A stretch of 26,943 nt of DNA from a virus (Duplodnaviria > Caudoviricetes): the IMG/VR virus record IMGVR_UViG_3300021978_000005, positions 1 to 26,943 of that record. The stretch is one strand, 5' to 3'. Position 1 is the stretch's first letter. Each line of letters opens with the position of its first letter. Below are positions 14,768-26,943 of this stretch, piece after piece. Below the pieces are notes generated by a model, which searched no databases, was not told the DNA's origin, and saw only the letters and a program-made list of their open reading frames with translations. A program made the translations under genes and the position numbers.

Positions 14768-14796
14768 ATTATAACACCTTTAGTCTATTTGACTAA
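14768..14796 (-). promoter_or_regulatory. Putative internal sigma70-type promoter with overlapping inverted repeat
   Basis: Minus strand TG-T-TATAAT (TATAAT at 14768-14773); inverted repeat TTAGTC-N5-GACTAA at 14780-14796 covers the -35 position. Confidence 0.55.
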
Positions 14797-17700
14797 TTCC
14801 TTTAATTCTTCTTCAGTCATCCCAAGAATACCAACTAGAATATCAATATAATCATCATTAACCTTCTCACCCCTGATAGTAATATTATCATCTTCTATAT
14901 CCAACAAACTTGTAAGTGCTTCTGTTATATTGTCAGAAGACTCTAAAACTGAGAGGATGCCTTCTACGTGTTCTGCATCTGCTTCTTCAGTAATAGACAA
15001 AGCGCCTAGTCCTGCTCCTGTTGGCATTGCAACTTTAGAGAAATATAGCTCCGGAAACTTATCAAATAGAGACTTCCTTTCTGCATCTGTGCCATACTTA
15101 TAAATCTTCTCTATTCCTTTGCTCTTTAGTAATTCTTCTGCTTTTTTAGCATACTCAGGAATAATTGCACCTTTAAACTTACTTACATCTACAATATCTG
15201 TTCTTTTTACCTCGAAGTATTCTGTCGGCAAACCATCTGCTATATCTTTTAGTTGATTTGTTATAGTTGTTACTTTTGCAATCGCTTCATCGGGCCAGCC
15301 AGTCCAAGACAAATCAGCGCCTTTTATTGAGTCTTCAATAATATCTTCATATCTAAATGAAGGCATATATCCGTCATCTAGTTTAGCACCTAATCTTTCT
15401 ACATCTTCCATAGCGTCACTATAGTGGGCAGTGAAGTAAGACTTAAAATCCGCCTCACCTGCTAGAGGGTCGAACTGGTACTCGTCTACAATATCGTCTC
15501 TACTTTTCTTAATAGCATCTAAAGTTTTAAACTGAGTAGCAGTTAGGGCTCTTGCTTGTCCTGCGCCTTTCAATCCCTCAGTTCCAGGAAGATGAGCTTT
15601 CTTGTCTTTCATAACCTTGTGGGCAGCTTCTGGAGTCCACTCTACTGTGTCTCTCTTTTTTCCTGTTGGTGTGTATTGCCCTTTAGGGTTAACAATAGCG
15701 TGCCTAACTTCTCCAAGATACTGCTCAGGAGTTATATGTGGCTCAGGAACATAGTGCCCGTCACTCTCAGCTTGTCTTCTCATTAAAGCAAAAGAAGCAA
15801 AGTCTGAAGTTTTGTACCCTAACTCTTCATAAACTGGAGTTACTGCTACCTTAGCCTCTAACCCTCCAGGAGTTAAGTTATCAACTGTGTAATAACCGTA
15901 GAAATCAAGCGTTGATTCAGGGATGCTTTCTTTGAGGGTTTTTTTGTCTGTGTATTCCAGCCTAGAGTCTGGCTGTCTTCCTGAATAAATATCAGTGCTA
16001 TATGCCTTTGCTTTAGCCCCAGGAGTAATCAAGTCTGGATGTGCTAGTAGAGAAACTTCACCGAAGCTGGTCATAGGACTTTTAGCTTTGGAAATAGCCA
16101 TTGAAGGCATTGGCAAGCCTTTTTCTTGTTTAAGTAAAGAACTTTCCGTTAGATTGTGTTGAGCAATTAGAGGGTTTTTAATCCCACCGACATATTCACC
16201 GCCTCTAGTAAGAATGCTTACATCGTCAGGGTGGTATATCATTACAGTGCCATCTGTACCTCTGTTTCCAATTATCCCATACTCACGTAAAGTAGCTTGC
16301 GCCTCTCTCTCACCTATCTCTTTTGCTAAAGTAAAGTAATTCTCTGCGTGAAAATCATCTGGGAAATCAATATTGTATTCTCTACTAATCCCCTTAAAAG
16401 CATTATTAACAAAGTTTGAGTTCTTACCGCCCCAATCAATAGTTATATCTTTGTAATTATCAGCAAACTTCCATCCAGTAACAGTGCTTCCAGGCCAAGC
16501 AGCAGCGTCCTTCTCGTCCAAGAACATATAATGTCCTGTTCCATATTGTCCAGGAACTTGCTGATTCGGGTTAGGTTTGTCGTACACTGAGCTCCCTGAA
16601 CGAAAACCTACAACGTCTTTCTCAATAATAGGAGTAATTCCAAACTTACTAGAGACCTTATTCATTGTAATAGGGTCTGCAGCTTTTAATGCTTGGTGTG
16701 CTACTGCTTTACTAATAAATCCTACACCTGTTAGCATTGCTAGTGCCTCTACAGGTCTCTCAGATAGTGTTTTTGTAAACCCGTCTATTGAGCCGTAATC
16801 TTGAAGTACAGCATTACCTAATGCTGAAGCCATCTCCTTGTCGTTTTGATTGTAATCAAACCCTGTTACGTGTTGAAAAGTTCCTGACAATAAATCAACA
16901 AGAGCCTGTCCTGTTTCTACAGGGCTTGAAATCATGTCTATGACACCACCTACTTCAGTTGCAAGCGAAGGTATAAAGTTCCCTGCTGCTTGACCTGCTG
17001 CAGCTTGGTCAGGGTTAAAGTCCGTAACTCCTTGTATAGATTTCTCTAGGTTGTTGTACCAGTTAGTAGCTGGGTTTTTAAGAGTTCCTTCCACAGCTTT
17101 TCCGGCAGTATCAAGCACTCTAGTATTTAGAAATTCATTCCAACCATCCTTAGTAGGGGCTGCTTTAGTATTAGGGACTTCACCTAATATTCCAGGTAAA
17201 TTTAAGTCTGGTGCTATATCTCTAGCAAAAGAGTTTTTATCATTAACAAATGAGTTTTCATTCTTAGTATCTACATAATGCTGCTGTTTAGCATCAAAGT
17301 TATAATTGCCGAAGGCATCTGTTGATATAGGGTTTCCGAAATCATCTGTGTCTGCCCAGTTTTCAGATTGCCATTTAGACGCTTCTTGTAATCCATCGAG
17401 AGTATATTCTCCATCGAACCAACCCCAAGGGGAGGATGACTTAGCGTTATTATCCCTGCCCTTCGTCATGTCATTCCAACCACTGTATTGTAGCCTTGCA
17501 TCAGCTATATCAATAGTTTTTAATTCGTCTACTGTGTCTAAATATGTCTGGCGGTCTGCCCTCATTTCGTCTACATTAGAAAGCATTTGCATCTTAGAAG
17601 CGAAAGAAGGGTTACTACGAATATCGTCAATTACACCTTGCTCTTCTTGGGTTGCATTGTCTAACAAGCCTGGATAACTGGATTGCATCCAAGAGTCTTG

Positions 17701-17847
17701 GAATGATGGAGCGTTCATACTGTCGCCAGCACCCCATGTAAAGTCTCCTACAGAACTTGCACCGTGTACATTTCTATAATCCGCTGCATCCATGTAATCG
17801 GAATCAAACCAATCATCTTCAGACCAGCTACTAATATCGTCAGTCAC
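14785..17847 (-). CDS. Large polyvalent-type protein with ADP-ribosyltransferase-like modules
   Basis: 1020 aa. aa 411-551 resemble the ART domain of polyvalent proteins (YGTGHY, IDW, LREYGIIG, VMIYHPDDVSIL). aa 558-936 carry HNL..GLPMPSMAI..FGEVSL..YFEVK, recalled from large phage polyvalent proteins. Confidence 0.6.
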   Translation of the reverse strand: MTDDISSWSEDDWFDSDYMDAADYRNVHGASSVGDFTWGAGDSMNAPSFQDSWMQSSYPGLLDNATQEEQGVIDDIRSNPSFASKMQMLSNVDEMRADRQTYLDTVDELKTIDIADARLQYSGWNDMTKGRDNNAKSSSPWGWFDGEYTLDGLQEASKWQSENWADTDDFGNPISTDAFGNYNFDAKQQHYVDTKNENSFVNDKNSFARDIAPDLNLPGILGEVPNTKAAPTKDGWNEFLNTRVLDTAGKAVEGTLKNPATNWYNNLEKSIQGVTDFNPDQAAAGQAAGNFIPSLATEVGGVIDMISSPVETGQALVDLLSGTFQHVTGFDYNQNDKEMASALGNAVLQDYGSIDGFTKTLSERPVEALAMLTGVGFISKAVAHQALKAADPITMNKVSSKFGITPIIEKDVVGFRSGSSVYDKPNPNQQVPGQYGTGHYMFLDEKDAAAWPGSTVTGWKFADNYKDITIDWGGKNSNFVNNAFKGISREYNIDFPDDFHAENYFTLAKEIGEREAQATLREYGIIGNRGTDGTVMIYHPDDVSILTRGGEYVGGIKNPLIAQHNLTESSLLKQEKGLPMPSMAISKAKSPMTSFGEVSLLAHPDLITPGAKAKAYSTDIYSGRQPDSRLEYTDKKTLKESIPESTLDFYGYYTVDNLTPGGLEAKVAVTPVYEELGYKTSDFASFALMRRQAESDGHYVPEPHITPEQYLGEVRHAIVNPKGQYTPTGKKRDTVEWTPEAAHKVMKDKKAHLPGTEGLKGAGQARALTATQFKTLDAIKKSRDDIVDEYQFDPLAGEADFKSYFTAHYSDAMEDVERLGAKLDDGYMPSFRYEDIIEDSIKGADLSWTGWPDEAIAKVTTITNQLKDIADGLPTEYFEVKRTDIVDVSKFKGAIIPEYAKKAEELLKSKGIEKIYKYGTDAERKSLFDKFPELYFSKVAMPTGAGLGALSITEEADAEHVEGILSVLESSDNITEALTSLLDIEDDNITIRGEKVNDDYIDILVGILGMTEEELKELVK

Positions 17848-19785: not shown

Positions 19786-20155
19786 CTTCACCGTAACCTA
19801 CAATCTCAATTCTTGTTGGGAATTTTACAGAACCATCACTCGATGTAATATCTTGTGAAGTCTTAGCAACTAGCCCATGGTGTGAGCTTAAAGCAAGGGT
19901 TGCAGTCCTCTCTTTGAACTCGCCATTAAGTGAACCATTCATGAGCTTTCTACCCTGATGAGTCATTAAAGTCCTTACGACGTCGGAAAACTCAGGATAA
20001 ACTCTGCCCCATTCATTGATTGTATCCCTGTGAACGCCTAGCTCTAAAGCTAATCCATCAATCATAGGTATTTGGTCGCCATAGGTAATATAGTTCTTTA
20101 TATAGTCCTCAGCTTTCTCTATTGTTTTGTCATTGTACTTAGTTGGTCTTGCCAT
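19766..20155 (-). CDS. terS: Terminase small subunit (P22 gp3-like)
   Basis: MARPTKY..IPMIDGLALELGVHRDTINEW..PEFSD; directly upstream of and overlapping terL. Confidence 0.88.
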   Translation of the reverse strand: MARPTKYNDKTIEKAEDYIKNYITYGDQIPMIDGLALELGVHRDTINEWGRVYPEFSDVVRTLMTHQGRKLMNGSLNGEFKERTATLALSSHHGLVAKTSQDITSSDGSVKFPTRIEIVGYGEDDYTDD

Positions 20156-20394
20156 TAGTGTAGCTCCTCTCGAGGTGGAACAGCACTGACTTCAAACTCA
20201 AGCTGCTCTCTCATTTCTTCAATTTCTTGGTGAGCGTCTGATATGGATATATCTTCATAACCTGAAAGTATCATCAAAGCACAAACATAAAGCTGTAAAA
20301 ACTCTTCAGGTTCATATTCTGAAAATTGTAAGCCTTCCTTGTCTAACAAGCTATTTAAACTCATACAATCCTTATTTATAACCCATTGATTCAA
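20155..20394 (-). CDS. Hypothetical acidic protein (79 aa)
   Basis: Overlaps ninB and abuts terS. Confidence 0.6.
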   Translation of the reverse strand: MNQWVINKDCMSLNSLLDKEGLQFSEYEPEEFLQLYVCALMILSGYEDISISDAHQEIEEMREQLEFEVSAVPPREELH

Positions 20395-20788
20395 GGTACA
20401 AATCTTCAGGCCTTGGCAACACTATACCATACTCAGCCATAAGCATATCAATCTGCTCTAGGTAGTCTTTGAACTCGCCCACCTTTAATTTGGTTGTGCT
20501 TCTTAGTTCTCGGACTGTTTCACCCTTCTTAGTTGTTATCTCGTTATAGCCTAGAAACTTATCTCTCAGTATCATGTGAGCTTCATCTTTAGTGTAACCA
20601 AGTTCAGGACTTATGACTGTTCCTATCCACTCCCAATACAATCTGTTCTGCTTAGTTGAACGTGAGTCTTTGTCTTGTTTTATTTCAATAATAGCTTTAT
20701 CATCCTCTGAAAACTGACTGAAGTGACTAACTATCATTGATTCAATAATGTGTCGCTTCTCTTTAGTTCTTTCTATTACTCGTTTCAT
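20372..20788 (-). CDS. ninB: NinB/Orf-family recombination mediator
   Basis: RSTKQNRLYWEWI and STTKLKVGEFKDYLEQI..AEYGIVLP motifs. Confidence 0.8.
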   Translation of the reverse strand: MKRVIERTKEKRHIIESMIVSHFSQFSEDDKAIIEIKQDKDSRSTKQNRLYWEWIGTVISPELGYTKDEAHMILRDKFLGYNEITTKKGETVRELRSTTKLKVGEFKDYLEQIDMLMAEYGIVLPRPEDLYLESMGYK

Positions 20789-20979
20789 AAAGTCACTATA
20801 GTGTGCACAGCATGTATAGCGTTAATAGTAGTTAATGTATCTACCATAGGGCCTGAACATCCTGATAATAATAAAACCATTGATACTAATAACACTGTAA
20901 CTATCGGTAACTTAACGAAACATGTATGACAATTACAAATCTTATCGAACACCTCTTTTACCTCTATATTTTTTAACAT
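20785..20979 (-). CDS. Small membrane/lipoprotein (64 aa)
   Basis: Strong RBS; hydrophobic stretch ending in lipobox LSGC; ATGA overlap with ninB. Confidence 0.55.
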   Translation of the reverse strand: MLKNIEVKEVFDKICNCHTCFVKLPIVTVLLVSMVLLLSGCSGPMVDTLTTINAIHAVHTIVTL

Positions 20980-20993
20980 CTCCTCTCCTCTTT

Positions 20994-21278
20994 TTAAATT
21001 AAACCTTTACTAACTAAAATCTCTTGTGTTCTCTTCATCCCCATTAAGTGCATTAAAAGTAAGTTTTCCTTACTATATTCGCTAGGCTTCCTACCGTCAA
21101 GAATATCATGGCAACTATGACAACAGTAAGCACCGTGAATATCCAAACACTTCCTACCAATGCCACCACCGTTAAGATGGGCAAAAACGACAGTTTCGTT
21201 ATTAGGTCCTCCATTGCAACCTTCTAGTCTTATTGTGCATGCTTCTCCTCTAGCTGACTTAGTTATCTTAGAGGACAT
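20994..21278 (-). CDS. DUF1364/YbcO-family Zn-binding putative nuclease
   Basis: KSARGEACTIRL..ETVVFAH..GAYCCHSCHDILDGR; likely start MSSK at 21278. Confidence 0.85.
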   Translation of the reverse strand: MSSKITKSARGEACTIRLEGCNGGPNNETVVFAHLNGGGIGRKCLDIHGAYCCHSCHDILDGRKPSEYSKENLLLMHLMGMKRTQEILVSKGLI

Positions 21279-21621
21279 TGATATGCCACTCAATACATTG
21301 TTCAATCACATCTGCAACTGAATACACTACTGCTACTTCACCACCTGCCTCTTCAATCCTAGCAATAAACTCTTTCTGAGGTTTGCTTAATGTTCCTTTG
21401 CCACTATCTGCTGTCTTAGGCTTCTTAACCTCTAGGAAGTACGCCATTCCATCGTGAATAACACATATATCAGGAACTCCTGCCTTTACACCTTCTGACT
21501 TTAACTTTGCAGCAACAATCTTATTACGTTGACCACCGTTAGGAACTGCAAACCAACAAACCTTTCTCATATCTAAATACTGAGCAATAGCCTTCTGTAC
21601 TTGGTGTTCGTAATCATTCAT
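21268..21621 (-). CDS. VRR-NUC domain (PD-(D/E)xK) nuclease
   Basis: EHQVQ..FAVPNGG..GVKAGVPDI..FLEVK..LSKPQKEF. Confidence 0.88.
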   Translation of the reverse strand: MNDYEHQVQKAIAQYLDMRKVCWFAVPNGGQRNKIVAAKLKSEGVKAGVPDICVIHDGMAYFLEVKKPKTADSGKGTLSKPQKEFIARIEEAGGEVAVVYSVADVIEQCIEWHINVL

Positions 21622-21785
21622 TTCTTCTTAGTCTCATTAAGTAAATTATCAATAATGCCTTTAGCGGATTCACAGGTATGTTTTCTTACTGCGTCATCGT
21701 TCATAAAGCTAATTCTATCTAACAAATGTTTAACGCCTACTAGAGCTGTTGTACATTGTTTCTTACTATGACCCCACCACTTCAT
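21618..21785 (-). CDS. Hypothetical protein (55 aa)
   Basis: Hand-translated MKWWGHSKKQCTTALVGVKHLLDRISF...NETKKK; ATGA overlaps at both ends. Confidence 0.7.
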   Translation of the reverse strand: MKWWGHSKKQCTTALVGVKHLLDRISFMNDDAVRKHTCESAKGIIDNLLNETKKK

Positions 21786-21958
21786 TTGATTGTATTGCTA
21801 TGACCGCCACCACACGGTTTGAACATAGGAGTAGACACTGTTTGTCTTGTATCTTTACTAGTACATTCAGGACATTTACCGCTCTTAGCATGGTCAGTCA
21901 TTCTATTATCCTTTGTGTATTTGTGTTCACAGGTATTACACATGTAATCATAAATCAT
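21782..21958 (-). CDS. FmdB-like zinc-ribbon protein (58 aa)
   Basis: Hand-translated MIYDYMCNTCEHKY...CPECTSKDTRQTVSTPMF; two CxxC pairs; ATGA overlaps at both ends. Confidence 0.8.
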   Translation of the reverse strand: MIYDYMCNTCEHKYTKDNRMTDHAKSGKCPECTSKDTRQTVSTPMFKPCGGGHSNTIK

Positions 21959-22134
21959 TTCTTACTTTTAAAATAAGTAGAGAGAGCGTAAGTAATTAAA
22001 TGAATATCAGGCCTTCCTTTTTTTATCCTATTACTCAAAGCTACATAAGTTATGCCTAGAATAGCTGAGACCTCTTTTTGAGTAAGCCCCATCTTTCTAA
22101 ACTCCTTTTTTATATCATCATATTTTATAAGCAT
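21955..22134 (-). CDS. Cro/XRE-like HTH regulator (59 aa)
   Basis: MGLTQKEVSAILGITYVALSNRIK HTH; first gene of the leftward operon; ATG at 22134 preferred. Confidence 0.75.
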   Translation of the reverse strand: MLIKYDDIKKEFRKMGLTQKEVSAILGITYVALSNRIKKGRPDIHLITYALSTYFKSKK

Positions 22135-22137
22135 AGC

Positions 22138-22189
22138 ACGTATTATATCAAGAAAACTATACATAAACACAACAATTCTTTATATTAAT
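22138..22189 (-). promoter_or_regulatory. Leftward early promoter (extended -10)
   Basis: Minus strand TG-A-TATAAT (TATAAT at 22142-22147), 7 nt before the HTH ATG; shares blocks with the rightward promoter. Confidence 0.7.
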
Positions 22190-22705
22190 CAAGATTATCA
22201 CTCTAACTTACGCACTATCGTTTGTTTGCTCGGTGCTTTGCACCCAAGCCGTTCTCTAGGTAGAGCTCGTCACTTCGTTCCTCTGGGGTATAAATACCCT
22301 TTTTTAGAGCAAGAGCAAGTCAGTGTTATATTCGGTTAAGTTGTTTAGTTGGGGAAATCGGGGTAAAGAAATCCCTAGGCTAAATTAATAACCTAGAGAG
22401 ATTTACATTCGTATAAAGCGCCTAAGCAGTCTTCATCGGATGGTCACACTATTACGTTTGTGACTCAGAGTTCATCGCTACCTTGAACAGGCACTCACCC
22501 ACTATAACTCTGCGCTAGATTTAAAAACACTGTACAGGTATTACCCTAGTAAGTTCGTAACGAGAGGAAATGCTTTGTCCTACATTTAACCTAACGACTT
22601 AATCTAACATCAATCAATAGCATACCCATTTGATGAATCTCTTTTTTTTATTCAGGTGTGAGTGAAACCAATTGGTCAGACATATCACCTGTCGGGGCGG
22701 TGAAA

Positions 22706-22733
22706 TTGCCAAATGGAAAAGATATGATATAAT
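22706..22733 (+). promoter_or_regulatory. Promoter of small antisense RNA
   Basis: TTGCCA (22706-22711), 16-nt spacer ending TG-A, TATAAT (22728-22733). Confidence 0.75.
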
Positions 22734-22738
22734 CTTTA

Positions 22739-22799
22739 ACAGGTGGCGCAATCACCTAATTCGACCCTCGTCAGATTCTAAGTCTTTCGGGGGTTTTTT
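22739..22799 (+). ncRNA. Putative ~60-nt two-hairpin small RNA
   Basis: Bounded by a near-consensus promoter and an intrinsic terminator; hairpin AGGTG/CACCT, then ACCCTCG/CGGGGGT plus T-tract; no ORF. Confidence 0.65.
22764..22799 (+). terminator. Rho-independent terminator
   Basis: Stem ACCCTCG (22764-22770)/CGGGGGT (22788-22794), inner AGATT/AGTCT, T-tract 22794-22799. Confidence 0.75.
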
Positions 22800-22812
22800 C
22801 GTTCTGAAGCAG

Positions 22813-22843
22813 ATTATAAACTAAGTAAATTAATAGATGTAAA
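22813..22843 (-). promoter_or_regulatory. Putative promoter for the long non-coding transcript
   Basis: Minus strand TATAAT (22813-22818) and TTTACA (22838-22843); the 19-nt spacer is long and the context AT-rich. Confidence 0.45.
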
Positions 22844-22859
22844 TTAAATTAGTGAATTA

Positions 22860-22906
22860 AATATAAAGAATTGTTTGCATAACATAAAGTTTTCTGTATA
22901 ATACGT
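22860..22906 (+). promoter_or_regulatory. Rightward early promoter
   Basis: TTGCAT (22875-22880), 16 nt, TATAAT (22897-22902); AT-rich upstream; precedes the early operon. Confidence 0.72.
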
Positions 22907-22957
22907 AGTAACTTGATTGAGACATTAAGTTCTTTAAAACAAAAAACGGAGATACAA

Positions 22958-23293
22958 ATGAGAGAGACAATGACAGATTACCTAGTTGGAGATTTATACG
23001 AGGCTAGACACCAAGATAATAAAGTAGAGGCCAAGCTTGAGTTCTACAACAAGATTGAGAAAATCAAACAGAAGTTTGAGCATCACATAACAGAAGAGGC
23101 TGTATGTGACTTCGGCTACCCAAAGATGAAGCTGTTTGTTGACTCAGTAGAGAAGATGAAAGTCATGGCTGAGTGTTATCAATATGTAGACGATGATAAT
23201 GAGCTTATTGAGTACAACTTCACCAACACTCTAAGAAACCTTCTTATGGACGAATACGGATGGAATATTAGAGATGGAGCTATCAATGATTAA
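22958..23293 (+). CDS. Hypothetical early protein (111 aa)
   Basis: ATG at 22958 with GGAG RBS preferred over the TTG at 22913. Confidence 0.7.
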   Translation: MRETMTDYLVGDLYEARHQDNKVEAKLEFYNKIEKIKQKFEHHITEEAVCDFGYPKMKLFVDSVEKMKVMAECYQYVDDDNELIEYNFTNTLRNLLMDEYGWNIRDGAIND

Positions 23294-23372
23294 AGCATTA
23301 TTAGAAGGGCTTGTATTCCTAATGTTTGCAGGCAGCGTACTTATATTATTAGTTTTATTGGGGAGTCAATGA
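23286..23372 (+). CDS. 28-aa membrane peptide
   Basis: MIKALLEGLVFLMFAGSVLILLVLLGSQ; GGAG RBS; overlaps both neighbours. Confidence 0.65.
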   Translation: MIKALLEGLVFLMFAGSVLILLVLLGSQ

Positions 23373-23545
23373 TGAATATTAAAGAAATCAAAGAGAAGTT
23401 ACAGGCACACATTGCTATACACGGTGTTCCTAAAGTTAAGCAAGATGAAGAGCCGGATATGATGTCTTATGCTCATGAGGTTATGGCAGACGAAGAATTT
23501 AAAACAGAATATGACGAGTTTTTAGCGTCAATACGAGGAGAGTGA
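23369..23545 (+). CDS. Hypothetical protein (58 aa)
   Basis: MMNIKEIKEKLQAHIAIHGVPKV...EFLASIRGE; GGGAG RBS; ATGA overlap. Confidence 0.7.
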   Translation: MMNIKEIKEKLQAHIAIHGVPKVKQDEEPDMMSYAHEVMADEEFKTEYDEFLASIRGE

Positions 23546-23546
23546 T

Positions 23547-23756
23547 ATGACACAAGATGAGAGACTATTAGATTATATGAGAGATAACAAACACATAGAC
23601 CCGCTGCAAGCATGGCAAGAGTTAGGTATTTATAGACTAGCTGCATGTATCCATAGACTGCGTAAGAAAGGACACAACATTATAAGTAATCGCAAGAAAG
23701 TACAAAACAGATTCGGAGAGGTTTGCAATGTTGCTGACTACCGATGGGGGTTATGA
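23547..23756 (+). CDS. Winged HTH DNA-binding protein (HTH_39-like)
   Basis: TQ.ERLLDYM..IDPLQAWQELGIYRLAACIHRLRKKGHNI..VADY; GAGGAG RBS. Confidence 0.8.
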   Translation: MTQDERLLDYMRDNKHIDPLQAWQELGIYRLAACIHRLRKKGHNIISNRKKVQNRFGEVCNVADYRWGL

Positions 23757-23830
23757 TGATTGAATTGCTAATAGGATTTTCGATAATGTACTTCGCTTTC
23801 CTCCTGTACATAAGCTTAGGAGATGACTAA
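23753..23830 (+). CDS. 25-aa membrane peptide
   Basis: MMIELLIGFSIMYFAFLLYISLGDD; ATGA overlap upstream and TAATG overlap with erf. Confidence 0.6.
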   Translation: MMIELLIGFSIMYFAFLLYISLGDD

Positions 23831-24420
23831 TGGATAAGACAACACAGCTTTGCGACAAGCTAATAGATATACAGAGGCAACTAAAATCTGCCAAGGATAA
23901 GAAAAACTCATACGGCAAGTACAACTACAGGAGCGTAGAGGGAATATTAGACGCTTTAAAGCCTTTGCTATCTCTTGCTCAAGCCTCAGTAACCATGTCT
24001 GATACTATTGAGAGAGTCGGTGACAGGAATTACGTGAAAGCAACTGTATGCCTAGCAGACGGTGCAGATTCTATTTGCTCTACCTCTTTTGCATGGGAGG
24101 AAGCTAGGAAGGGAATGAGTGCAGACCAATGTACCGGTTCGGCTAGTTCATACGCCCGTAAATATGCACTTGGAGGCCTCTTCTTAGTTAGTGAAAATTC
24201 AGTGGATGCTGATGACGAAGACAATACTGAAATGAACTATGTTCCCAAGAAGGATATTGAAGCAGCCCTAAAAATGCTAGACAAAGCCTTTGAAGATGGA
24301 AACACGGATAAAGCTAGAAGGATTTACAATAAAGCCGAGGGTAATAACCCACAATTAACACAGGTCTGTGACCGCTATATTATGTTGTTCGGCATTGATG
24401 ACACAACAGAGGGAATGTAG
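23830..24420 (+). CDS. erf: ERF-family single-strand annealing protein
   Basis: YGKYNYRSVEGIL and QCTGSASSYARKYALGGLF..DAD signature. Confidence 0.9.
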   Translation: MDKTTQLCDKLIDIQRQLKSAKDKKNSYGKYNYRSVEGILDALKPLLSLAQASVTMSDTIERVGDRNYVKATVCLADGADSICSTSFAWEEARKGMSADQCTGSASSYARKYALGGLFLVSENSVDADDEDNTEMNYVPKKDIEAALKMLDKAFEDGNTDKARRIYNKAEGNNPQLTQVCDRYIMLFGIDDTTEGM

Positions 24421-24431
24421 GTACAATTAAT

Positions 24432-24606
24432 GCACTGCTAAGGTTCACTACCTCCATTGAGCAGCTCGGGGTTACATTACGGGTACTCTCCTCAAGTTTA
24501 TCTCCCCCTCGAAGCGGTTTATATTTTTTCCGCTGAAGTAAAGGTAAACAGTGCGAATCGTCCACGAAACGGACCACTCATTTAGTAGCAACCACATCCC
24601 TTGTGG
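24432..24606 (+). ncRNA. Putative structured RNA in the erf-ssb intergenic region
   Basis: Several short stems (CTGCT/AGCAG, AGCGG/CCGCT, GTCC/GGAC, CCACA/TGTGG; long-range GCACTG/CAGTGC) and three CTCC motifs. Confidence 0.45.
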
Positions 24607-24612
24607 AAAATG

Positions 24613-24677
24613 CCAAGTTTGTCGGTACTTGGGCTTAGCGAACCGACCTTAACAACTTTAATAAATAGGAGACAACT
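24613..24677 (+). promoter_or_regulatory. H-type pseudoknot plus AU-rich leader before ssb
   Basis: S1 CCAAGT (24613-18)/ACTTGG (24627-32); S2 GTCGGT (24621-26)/ACCGAC (24642-47); then an A/T-rich tract and AGGAG RBS. Confidence 0.65.
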
Positions 24678-25121
24678 ATGTCAGGAGTAAATAAAGTAAT
24701 ACTAGTAGGCAACCTCGGAAGAGAGCCTGAAATCAAATACGCATCTAATGGTGCTGCAATCGCTAACATGGCAATAGCCACGTCTGAGTCTTGGAACGAT
24801 AAGACCACAGGACAGAAGCAAGAAAAGACTGAGTGGCATCGTGTAGTCGTGTTCGGTAAGTTAGCTGAGATTGTTCAACAGTACGTTCATAAAGGTTCTA
24901 AGGTTTATGTCGAAGGACAGCTAAAGACCCGTAAGTGGCAAAATAAGGAAGGAGTAGACGTTTACACCACTGAAGTAGTTTTGTCGGGATTTGGGGGTGT
25001 ATTGCAAATGCTAGACAGTAGAAACAGCTCACCACAACAAGAGCACGTTCCTCAAGTTGCAGCAGACCCTATTACACCTGTAAAAGCTGATAACGCTTTT
25101 GAAGACGAAATCCCGTTTTAG
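24678..25121 (+). CDS. ssb: Single-stranded DNA-binding protein
   Basis: [37 protein letters not shown]; acidic tail EDEIPF. Confidence 0.97.
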
Positions 25122-25370
25122 ATGAACACTAATAAAAAGCAGTACAAATTAGATGACGGAACTATCACAAATGCTCATGAAGTCGCTCAAAAAGTAGGTA
25201 TCACTATTTCAAACGCGAGGTCTCGTTTGTCTACACACTCTGACCCCGACAAGGTTTGGAAGAAGAAACAAAACAAAAACGTACTAGACCCTGACTCATA
25301 CAAAATGAGACGTATTAAATCAAGAGGTATGTGGGATGAAATGCTAGTGCTAGCAATGAAGAAAATTTAA
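25122..25370 (+). CDS. Putative HTH DNA-binding protein (82 aa)
   Basis: AHEVAQKVGITISNARSRL HTH-like segment; last gene of the rightward operon. Confidence 0.6.
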   Translation: MNTNKKQYKLDDGTITNAHEVAQKVGITISNARSRLSTHSDPDKVWKKKQNKNVLDPDSYKMRRIKSRGMWDEMLVLAMKKI

Positions 25371-25422
25371 CTTTACAGGAGCTTAAAACAAAGTTGACTA
25401 GCTAGGTAACTAGAGAAAATGC

Positions 25423-25584
25423 CTAATTACATCTGCAATCACATACAAGAGGAGAAGCCTGTTGTTGTGGTTGTGTCATTTGCATCATGTTCATAGGCAT
25501 CTGAGCCCAATCAGCAAAGAAAGCATAAGAAGCTGTTGATATTAAAACACCTGTTATTATATAAATAATCGCACATTTCTTCAT
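25423..25584 (-). CDS. Small secreted Met/Cys-rich peptide (53 aa)
   Basis: Hand-translated MKKCAIIYIITGVLISTASYA-FFADWAQMPMNMMQMTQPQQQASPCMCDCRCN; signal-peptide-like N-terminus. Confidence 0.65.
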   Translation of the reverse strand: MKKCAIIYIITGVLISTASYAFFADWAQMPMNMMQMTQPQQQASPLVCDCRCN

Positions 25585-25649
25585 TTCTTCATCCTATGGT
25601 GGACATATCTATAAACAGGATTTTGGCTTGTTCCAAAATTAATCATCAT
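25581..25649 (-). CDS. Possible 22-aa micro-ORF
   Basis: MMINFGTSQNPVYRYVHHRMKK; bridges both neighbours by overlap; weak RBS. Confidence 0.35.
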   Translation of the reverse strand: MMINFGTSQNPVYRYVHHRMKK

Positions 25650-26028
25650 GTCTTCTTTTATACTTTTCTTTAGCCTGATTATAACCCCATTTACGAGTGA
25701 AATAAGGCACTGCTAAGTTAGTTATTAGTAAGAACGCTATAAAGCCGTATAAGACGTTCATAAATAAAGAATCAGCAATGTATGCAGCACTCTGTTCTTT
25801 CGTCTCTATTTGGTCAATCTGAGGCTCTTCAGGTATTATTTCATCAACACCAACACTAACAGCTAAGTTAGCAACAGCAGGTATAGGTCCTGCAATGGCA
25901 TAGGTAACAGCAGTGGTAGCGCCTGTCTTGACTATGTTGTTAAATTTCAATGAGTTACAGCCTGCTGCCAACATAAGGGCAGAAATTAGAGTTATTAATA
26001 ATAATATTCTAATGAAGAAGCTCATCAC
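25639..26028 (-). CDS. Lipoprotein with C-terminal TM helix (unimolecular spanin-like)
   Basis: Signal ending LAAG-C; C-terminal hydrophobic helix VLYGFIAFLLITNLAVPYF followed by a basic tail. Confidence 0.55.
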   Translation of the reverse strand: MMSFFIRILLLITLISALMLAAGCNSLKFNNIVKTGATTAVTYAIAGPIPAVANLAVSVGVDEIIPEEPQIDQIETKEQSAAYIADSLFMNVLYGFIAFLLITNLAVPYFTRKWGYNQAKEKYKRRHDD

Positions 26029-26150
26029 ATCTTAGTCCACTTCTCTATTTTGGTAATAAAGAAATTACAGAAGTATTTGATTTTATTAAGGATAGTCAAT
26101 TTCATATACTGACCCTTACTGTTTCTTACTTTTTGATTTGTTCTAGCCAT
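26025..26150 (-). CDS. Small basic protein (41 aa)
   Basis: MARTNQKVRNSKGQYMKLTILNKIKYFCNFFITKIEKWTKM; AGGAG RBS; stop overlaps the next start. Confidence 0.65.
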   Translation of the reverse strand: MARTNQKVRNSKGQYMKLTILNKIKYFCNFFITKIEKWTKM

Positions 26151-26159
26151 ATCGTTCTC

Positions 26160-26237
26160 CTATGCACAAAGCAGGTAAGGCCACAAAACCCAACAATCCC
26201 CTATGCAAGGAGGTATGTTTGGGGCTAGTGCTATCAC
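26160..26237 (-). CDS. Possible 25-aa micro-ORF
   Basis: GTGA overlap; MIALAPNIPPCIGDCWVLWPYLLCA; fills the gap between neighbours. Confidence 0.35.
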   Translation of the reverse strand: MIALAPNIPPCIGDCWVLWPYLLCA

Positions 26238-26482
26238 TTGGCAATTCTCATGTGCTTCCATATTTGGTCAATTTTAGTACCTTGAGACCTTATTTCAGTT
26301 TTAATATCACCTATATCACCATGAAAGTCATCTTTAAGAACGAATTTCATAGGTAAATCACTCTTGCATGAGTTCATACTCTTCTCTAAATCTTTGATGT
26401 CTGTCATTATTGACTTAACAACACCGCCTGTTATTGCAGACAATATTGATACAAATGCTAGAACTATATCTGCAACTTCCAT
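26234..26482 (-). CDS. Single-TM coiled-coil protein, holin/lysis-associated candidate
   Basis: N-terminal hydrophobic helix followed by a coiled coil; AAGGA RBS. Confidence 0.5.
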   Translation of the reverse strand: MEVADIVLAFVSILSAITGGVVKSIMTDIKDLEKSMNSCKSDLPMKFVLKDDFHGDIGDIKTEIRSQGTKIDQIWKHMRIAK

Positions 26483-26943
26483 CTATTTTTCCTTGTAAAT
26501 GAACTTGTCTAAATAATCTTTCTGAGATGATAACATAGTGCGGTCAAATTTTCGGATTTCTTCCATTTGACGTGAAGCATTAATTTCATCTACATATTTG
26601 TATTTATGCCTGTTTCTAGGCTCAAAGTTAGTACCGCTATATGTTGGTAAAGACCACGGCTCTCTATCTTCAAAACCATCCTTCTCAGGGAAGTATCCGA
26701 AACCTATTAGTTTGGAAATCCAACAACTAGGGATAAACATAACATCTCTAATAGGAGGCAACAAGGCCTTCTTGCAGGTATCTAACCAAGCCTTCATACG
26801 CTCAGTGATATGTGTATTCTTACCACGAGACTTCCAAAAGGCTGAGTCGTCTCTACTAGACATGTAATAGTTAGTAGAAATAAAGTCTAGTGTGTCCTCT
26901 AAAGAGGTACTTGTTATGTCGTTGTAAATCTCTTTAGTCATGT
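26483..26943 (-). CDS. Tryptophan halogenase-like protein, C-terminal part (runs off window end)
   Basis: YN..E.TLDFISTNYYMSSRDDSAFW..F..SCW..LIG matches the C-terminal pattern of PrnA-like flavin halogenases. Confidence 0.75.
   Translation of the reverse strand, partial: MTKEIYNDITSTSLEDTLDFISTNYYMSSRDDSAFWKSRGKNTHITERMKAWLDTCKKALLPPIRDVMFIPSCWISKLIGFGYFPEKDGFEDREPWSLPTYSGTNFEPRNRHKYKYVDEINASRQMEEIRKFDRTMLSSQKDYLDKFIYKEK

Follow-up and report, generated by a model that had tools for sequence, protein, structure and literature searches.

The window (the whole 26,943-nucleotide stretch analysed here) carries a predicted small antisense RNA gene, RNA I, over the 5′ end of an oppositely directed, long structured RNA, RNA II, likewise predicted. 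Both conservation and covariation give this cis-antisense, RNA I-like arrangement good support as a sequence-based prediction, and the antisense pair is very probably real. By analogy with known plasmids the pair probably works, in our judgement and with some reservation, as an RNA-primed, antisense-controlled replication origin that resembles those of MRB and ColE1 and is a member of neither family.

The window is a tailed-phage fragment whose portal and capsid genes are of SU10 type. Its leftward arm is long (HTH, VRR-NUC, YbcO, NinB, terminase and virion genes) and its rightward arm short (ERF, SSB), and the antisense unit sits inside a gap of ~740 nt between two outward-pointing promoters. 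GC skew turns at this gap; since gene direction turns there too, the skew is not counted as evidence.

The small RNA and its conservation

The small-RNA unit and the promoter opposing it have the following parts.

22706–22733, + strand: small-RNA promoter, TTGCCA-16-TGnTATAAT, with TTGCCA at 22706–22711 and TATAAT at 22728–22733
22739–22799, + strand: predicted RNA I, ~60 nt (start about 22739/41), two hairpins and a U-tract
22741–22758, + strand: RNA I hairpin 1, with a variable loop at 22746–22752, then a linker
22763–22795, + strand: RNA I terminator hairpin (hairpin 2), followed by the U-tract
22813–22843, − strand: long-RNA promoter, −10 TATAAT at 22818–22813, weak −35 TTTACA, 19-nt spacer

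The promoter described in the original prediction, with its extended TG, is present, matches the consensus at 11 of 12 positions and is the best of 29 promoter-like sites in 20000–26943. Shuffled sequence gives 21.1 ± 5.1 such sites at the same loose threshold, so the promoter by itself proves little. The two hairpins and U-tract were likewise confirmed: 22740–22799 folds at −21.6 kcal/mol (z −4.1), and none of 200 shuffles was as stable. Hairpin 2 has internal loops and is not listed by a simple terminator scan. The unit had also been described as free of ORFs, which holds in part: a mechanical 50-aa ORF with a TTG start (22672–22824, + strand) overlaps it, and one relative (L001) has a 10-nt insertion that interrupts this ORF. 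The small RNA does overlap the 5′ end of the long RNA, as proposed, but because the opposite −10 lies at 22818–22813 the pairing would span about nt 8–68 rather than nt 1–65; the exactness of the complementarity carries no evidential weight, being automatic for opposite strands. The long RNA contains two copies of AGGUGAU (22752–22758 and 22684–22692, − strand), a motif that resembles a portion of an extended ribosome-binding site, and the small RNA carries the complementary sequence. A role for the small RNA as leader of the rightward operon was rejected, as its terminator and a separate promoter intervene.

Relatives were first gathered with patterns drawn from outside the small-RNA unit (6 of 13 matches to one pattern and 1 of 16 to the other extended over a short stretch only and were set aside). 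The −10, both hairpins and the U-tract are kept in all 11 aligned relatives found in this way, several of them near-identical. Later patterns demanded the outer stems, so that outer-stem conservation is partly built in. A single regular expression run over all collected loci gave 109 matches in 34 distinct versions, 27 with the long region of the window (class A) and seven with an unrelated one (class B). All 34 versions lie in phage-type contigs, and the proteins flanking 128 such loci are phage-type.

Stems were expected to covary among relatives while loops vary, and they do. Compensatory changes occur in 7 of the 16 RNA I pairs (34 versions; 0 of 500 shuffles), including pairs in the inner stem of hairpin 2, which none of the patterns fixed. 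Column identity is 0.97 in stem 1 and 0.68 in loop 1. Loop 1 takes 17 forms in the 34 versions, some loops are shared by unrelated backbones, and in one relative (L025) two of the 26 alignment columns that differ over the long region fall in loop 1. Judged from these sequences, such diversity is the pattern expected for specificity loops.

The opposing promoter is part of the conserved layout. A TATAAT on the other strand lies 14–18 nt past the start of the matched U-tract, exact in 29 of the 34 versions and with one mismatch in three (one further version is truncated and one diverged), while shuffles would place it in 1.6 of 33. The −35 boxes are less regular: that of the small RNA has at most two mismatches in 18/34 versions, with the TG in 13/34, and that of the long RNA is mostly poor (at most two mismatches in only 9/33). 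The 16 versions with a poor small-RNA −35, the AT-rich region in which promoter-like sites are common, and RNA contigs that give no strand would all suit an insulating terminator beside a chance promoter, or a DNA-level signal such as an operator array or single-strand origin, with no acting small RNA. We regard this as very improbable: the spacing of the −10, hairpin 1, the terminator and the opposing −10 is fixed across two unrelated long-RNA classes, and loop diversity and a strand-picking G-U asymmetry also speak against it.

The full layout was found in none of 24 GTDB pattern matches. Rfam gave no gathering-level match in the window or six relatives (three weak ones, E 0.13–2.2, are sub-threshold), and a BLAST search with the region gave only short chance-level matches in plasmids and in annotated phages. 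Viral matches to a loose pattern (n = 121) were set aside as mostly another motif or chance. A different and very frequent motif (TATAAT, a short hairpin and a flanking inverted repeat) lies at ~3001 in L033, L036, L045, L048 and many more viral contigs. Promoter–hairpin–terminator units of similar layout and unrelated sequence occur in the viral contigs L054 (3007–3067 and 3767–3873), L063 and L087.

The long partner RNA and a predicted folding switch

22330–22806, − strand: predicted RNA II (class A), ~440–475 nt, structured, with no conserved ORF
22362–22399, − strand: 3′ hairpin and U-rich tail, candidate end of RNA II; covarying, z −3.2 on this strand vs −0.5 on the other
22653–22704, − strand: predicted folding switch between helix X and helix B, just downstream of the overlap; a thermodynamic prediction

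The partner had been taken for a long leftward transcript; we predict a discrete RNA of ~440 nt, and not the leader of the late operon. The earlier reading overlooked that the antisense target is itself a large structured RNA. The class A alignment holds 26 sequences, the window and 25 kept from 37 once near-duplicates were removed. RNAalifold predicts 62 pairs in it, 39 of them compensatory. Outside the RNA I overlap, 33 of 49 pairs are changed on both sides (169 cells, against a shuffled mean of 44 and 0 of 500 shuffles), and slid controls reach at most 21 cells. The structures were derived from the same alignments as the pair counts, which therefore lean towards them; given the effect size and the slid controls, there is little doubt from the alignment that the class A long region is a structured RNA. 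The consensus fold also separates the strands, at −42.5 kcal/mol for the leftward vs −20.9 for the other. Contigs of close variants from one RNA library cover 22328–22799, with strand and ends not given and DNA admixture possible. Within 21700–23400 the flanks have no contigs from RNA library X19, and X20 contributes almost none anywhere; contig gaps are not counted as evidence.

An RNA with rich structure and an antisense partner on its 5′ end could also be a toxic or trans-acting RNA (an RNA-only toxin–antitoxin system, exclusion, packaging), or it could encode a small toxic peptide, with the small RNA as its silencer. Class A has an invariant GGUGAUAUG with a ribosome-site-like motif, and all six class B sequences contain a 14-codon ORF. 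No peptide keeps its length or frame across the 26 class A sequences, however, and the differences within the class B micro-ORF are all amino-acid-changing; the conserved small toxic ORF of a type I toxin–antitoxin target RNA was not found. With no Rfam match, and with replication left unexplained, we consider a toxic or trans-acting RNA improbable.

The fold of RNA II suggests how RNA I might act on it. When nascent chains are folded in silico, 23 of 26 free RNAs show predicted pairing between the hairpin-1 part of the overlap and a UCACC-type segment near 22703, and the invariant GGUG would then be left to form the conserved helix B (22691–22686 with 22658–22653). When the overlap is masked, mimicking RNA I, helix X rises in 22/26 sequences (by more than 0.4 in 11) and falls in none. 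Masking the hairpin-1 half alone gives a rise above 0.4 in 10 sequences, the terminator half alone in none of 26. The shift is weaker at full RNA II length. The switch model was picked after the alignment was seen and uses equilibrium folding only.

Cassette classes, flanking elements and replication genes

The cassette is present in 21 of 21 NinB relatives that hold at least 3 kb upstream (many redundant), and in seven of the other 52, the remainder of which are mostly too short to judge. Class B has the same small RNA with an unrelated long region. All nine NinB loci that carry it have it in reverse with respect to the phage arms, so that it faces either the early promoter or variable endonuclease genes. 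Unrelated long-RNA classes are exchanged within one slot, and this swapping and inversion argues against a gene leader. An ORF for a MUG113/T5orf172 or HNH-AP2 endonuclease often follows class B (L240:1928–2311; L163:3966–4424; past the long region in L237 and L314), and such ORFs are a possible means of cassette spread.

A second phage family has an SF2 helicase and a P4-like primase (seven loci). In L367 and L373, which are two of its six distinct-looking members aside from the cut-short L368, class B lies just upstream of the helicase and primase genes, beside the remnant of a class C small RNA. Class C itself is a third unrelated pair, found in L369–L372, with small RNAs of three stems and ~105–115 nt, the size of ColE1 RNA I.

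L372:3400–3950 and L369:3930–4487 (also L370, L371), strand not given: class C pair, the long region of which runs into the helicase start

The phrog_270 initiator was not found in three records of the helicase–primase family (50–89% complete). These loci suit a leader controlling replication genes, and also an RNA origin that uses the phage's own helicase and primase.

The first of these readings is the main rival to an RNA-primed origin: an antisense-controlled attenuator or leader, in which RNA I sets termination at the 3′ hairpin against continuation into downstream genes (the helicase–primase genes in one family, the leftward operon in the window). Control of this kind is known from pT181 and pIP501, or from P4 CI immunity. 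In its favour, the long regions of class B in L367 and L373 and of class C in L369 and L372 lead straight to helicase–primase genes, the class A 3′ end is a covarying terminator-like hairpin, and the predicted folding switch fits it too. We nevertheless judge it unlikely, because the downstream operon in the window's family has its own promoter, class B there faces the other way, a conserved multi-domain structure of 440 nt exceeds an attenuator's needs, and a complete relative (G002, below) would be left without an evident replication start.

The elements beside the cassette in the window are these.

22142–22186, − strand: leftward promoter, twin to the rightward promoter, with the −10 placed 7 nt before the HTH start codon
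22860–22902, + strand: rightward early promoter, separate from the small-RNA promoter
21955–22134, − strand: HTH_3 (Cro/CI-like) gene, 59 aa (22.3 bits vs a cut-off of 23)
22194–22307, no strand assigned: side block; its bottom strand carries G(N1-2)A-loop mini-hairpin motifs and its + strand a hairpin/T-tract
23830–25121, + strand: ERF annealing protein and SSB, the sole DNA-metabolism genes recognised in the early arm

The two outward promoters are near-copies (48 of 73 columns identical). With the −10 so close to its start codon, the HTH gene is likely leaderless, and together with the twin divergent promoters (21955–22186, −; 22860–22906, +) it is possibly an autoregulated switch. The original prediction saw no CI-type repressor and offered RNA I as a stand-in; the small HTH_3 protein, which scores just below the cut-off, was missed there, so that a protein repressor could act here.

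The side block was found in 26 of 46 cassette loci and not in the other 20; across 18 loci its mini-hairpin motifs number 59 on the bottom strand and three on the top. We take these motifs to suggest a single-stranded DNA signal, and the block is a possible single-strand initiation signal. ColE1 needs a single-strand initiation site after its primer, according to the available text of PMC3167613. The block lies downstream of RNA II in class A and upstream in class B, keeping its orientation when class B is inverted; in class B phages neither its side nor its strand suits a lagging-strand signal.

Among the 37 window ORFs scanned, no family of initiators, helicases, primases, polymerases, integrases or partition proteins was matched. 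The most informative relative is G002 (L361/L362), which is 31.7 kb long, has terminal repeats and is rated 100% complete. Its class A cassette is nearly identical to that of the window, whose control region it also shares, and its virion module is different. G002 gave no match to an integrase, DnaB or the phrog_270 initiator, and no replication family beyond SSB and Sak in the 35 of 45 ORFs scanned (the 10 omitted are short, mostly overlapping or opposite-strand); partition families, including parABS/ParA, were absent from the same 35 as from the window ORFs. Another relative, G001, is 93% complete, with 25 of 50 ORFs scanned; its methylase matching a ‘DNA primase’ PHROG was discounted, as the profile is fused and the matched stretch reads as the methylase domain. 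In an ERF relative (G006, 78% complete), an initiator and a DnaB-like helicase are present and the cassette is absent. The anticorrelation of initiator and cassette comes from one phage type (L002 and L003, both fragments).

A 111-aa acidic early protein (22958–23293, + strand) is conserved, with relatives in about 62 loci, and has no match in Pfam, PHROG or the ESM Atlas. It is a candidate helper or anti-RNA I factor; as the ESM Atlas is empty for it, it may also be an unrecognised initiator or helper.

An RNA-primed origin and its relation to known systems

In the origin model, the 60-nt two-hairpin RNA I would be the antisense inhibitor of the ~440-nt RNA II, and the pair would form an RNA-primed replication origin in place of a protein initiator. 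Modelled folding suggests that RNA I, lying over hairpin 1 of nascent RNA II, would free a segment that captures the strand needed by the downstream conserved helix. By analogy with plasmid origins, free RNA II would hybridise to the template and prime host Pol I, and loop–loop contact with RNA I would block priming and so limit copy number; RNA I might similarly block incoming phages with the same loop. The model draws on the boxes on both strands, covariation, the variable 5′ loop and a complete relative without recognisable replication proteins. Of the functions first offered for RNA I, copy-number control and incompatibility fit best, and attenuation of its own leftward operon fits poorly, since that operon has its own twin promoter and the cassette is inverted in relatives. 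Some observations point the other way: the placement of classes B and C at helicase–primase genes is what a leader would show, class A RNA II is, unlike ColE1, rich in C towards its 3′ end, and neither a partition gene nor a switch-off of copy control for lytic growth was found.

A close parallel is with MRB (marine RNA-based) origins, which the available text of PMC3035462 describes as ~500 bp long with no ORF or Rep, a 68-nt two-stem RNA I with an essential 5′ loop, and an RNA II of ~465 nt whose promoter lacks a consensus; there, ColE1 and MRB are the only RNA-initiated plasmid families named. Like the pB1067 type in that text, the phage cassette is an ORF-less region of ~500 bp with a short two-stem RNA I and terminator (here predicted, ~60 nt), an opposite RNA II that spans all of RNA I, a weak RNA II promoter and no Rep ORF (here predicted), a 5′ loop as the specificity site, and an RNA I core on unrelated RNA II bodies, as in pES213. 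MRB replicons are further characterised by autonomous replication from this region and by allele-specific repression in trans by RNA I. The phage cassette differs in having no sequence homology to the ~110-bp RNA I core (our model R1 misses pSIO1, the position of whose RNA I is our own reading, and the plasmid BLAST is empty bar the chance-level matches), in its short hairpin 1 and long hairpin 2, and in residing in tailed phages rather than Vibrionaceae plasmids. The plasmid pPS41 was dropped as an MRB example because it has a Rep gene.

With ColE1/pMB1 the cassette shares a long structured RNA whose 5′ end is covered by an antisense RNA (here predicted), and has no recognised Rep protein (window ORFs, G002). 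In ColE1, RNA I binding refolds nascent RNA II; equilibrium folding of the phage RNAs predicts a shift above 0.4 in 11/26. The ColE1 system further involves RNase H processing, dependence on Pol I and the site ssiA. The cassette differs in its RNA I (~60 nt and two stems vs ~110 nt and three stems), in lacking an Rfam match or a recognised Rop, and in that model R1 misses ColE1. The R-loop region of ColE1 is G-rich, and class A has no G-rich 3′ tract.

The small hairpin RNAs P4 CI, P1 C4 and pT181 RNAI act in immunity or attenuation and, as proposed here, control a longer transcript by pairing. Unlike in those systems, the target here is a non-coding cassette that is self-contained and can be inverted, and that in the NinB family has no tie to a kil, antirepressor or rep gene.

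Cluster A mycobacteriophages have RNA-based prophage origins, called the first such systems in the available text of PMC7157519. Like the present cassette, these lack RepA, depend on a non-coding RNA region and are interchangeable with a RepA module among relatives. They adjoin parABS, serve the prophage only, and have no antisense partner named in that text, whereas here there is a predicted antisense gene, no recognised parABS or integrase, and a complete relative without other recognised replication genes. The literature searched, including the available text of PMC10690425 and PMC12753305, gave no description of the cassette; five contig names had no match in the part of the PMC10690425 supplement covered, so that the candidates left unnamed in that work may include the motif.

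Sixteen of the 20 runs listed with the stretch are labelled hydrothermal vent metagenome, a tally that includes the possible source and three rows of small share. Among the best 120 SSB matches, the relatives that carry a name are three from ‘Gammaproteobacteria bacterium’ and two from ‘Candidatus Thioglobus sp.’, at 62–68% identity, from which a SUP05-type host can be weakly inferred. Plausible rather than probable is a wider picture, in which a widespread group of marine tailed phages without protein initiators, probably of SUP05-type gammaproteobacterial hosts, would use swappable RNA-only origins (at least three unrelated classes), with 17 or more loops as plasmid-style incompatibility groups; they would gain immunity to superinfection without a repressor, and a carrier state like that of a plasmid. 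If true, this would be a sequence-unrelated RNA I/RNA II family and seemingly the sole initiation system of complete marine phage genomes, explaining how small phages without replication genes copy their DNA. To the independent models of primer control it would add a third or fourth, rich in natural covariation, together with allele-specific immunity that can be put to the test and, possibly, vectors for use in marine sulfur oxidisers.

Two other ORFs of the window are on the − strand: a 1020-aa protein adjoining the terminase has a PBECR5 nuclease-like domain (14785–17847), and the C-terminal part of a tryptophan-halogenase-like protein lies at 26483–26941.
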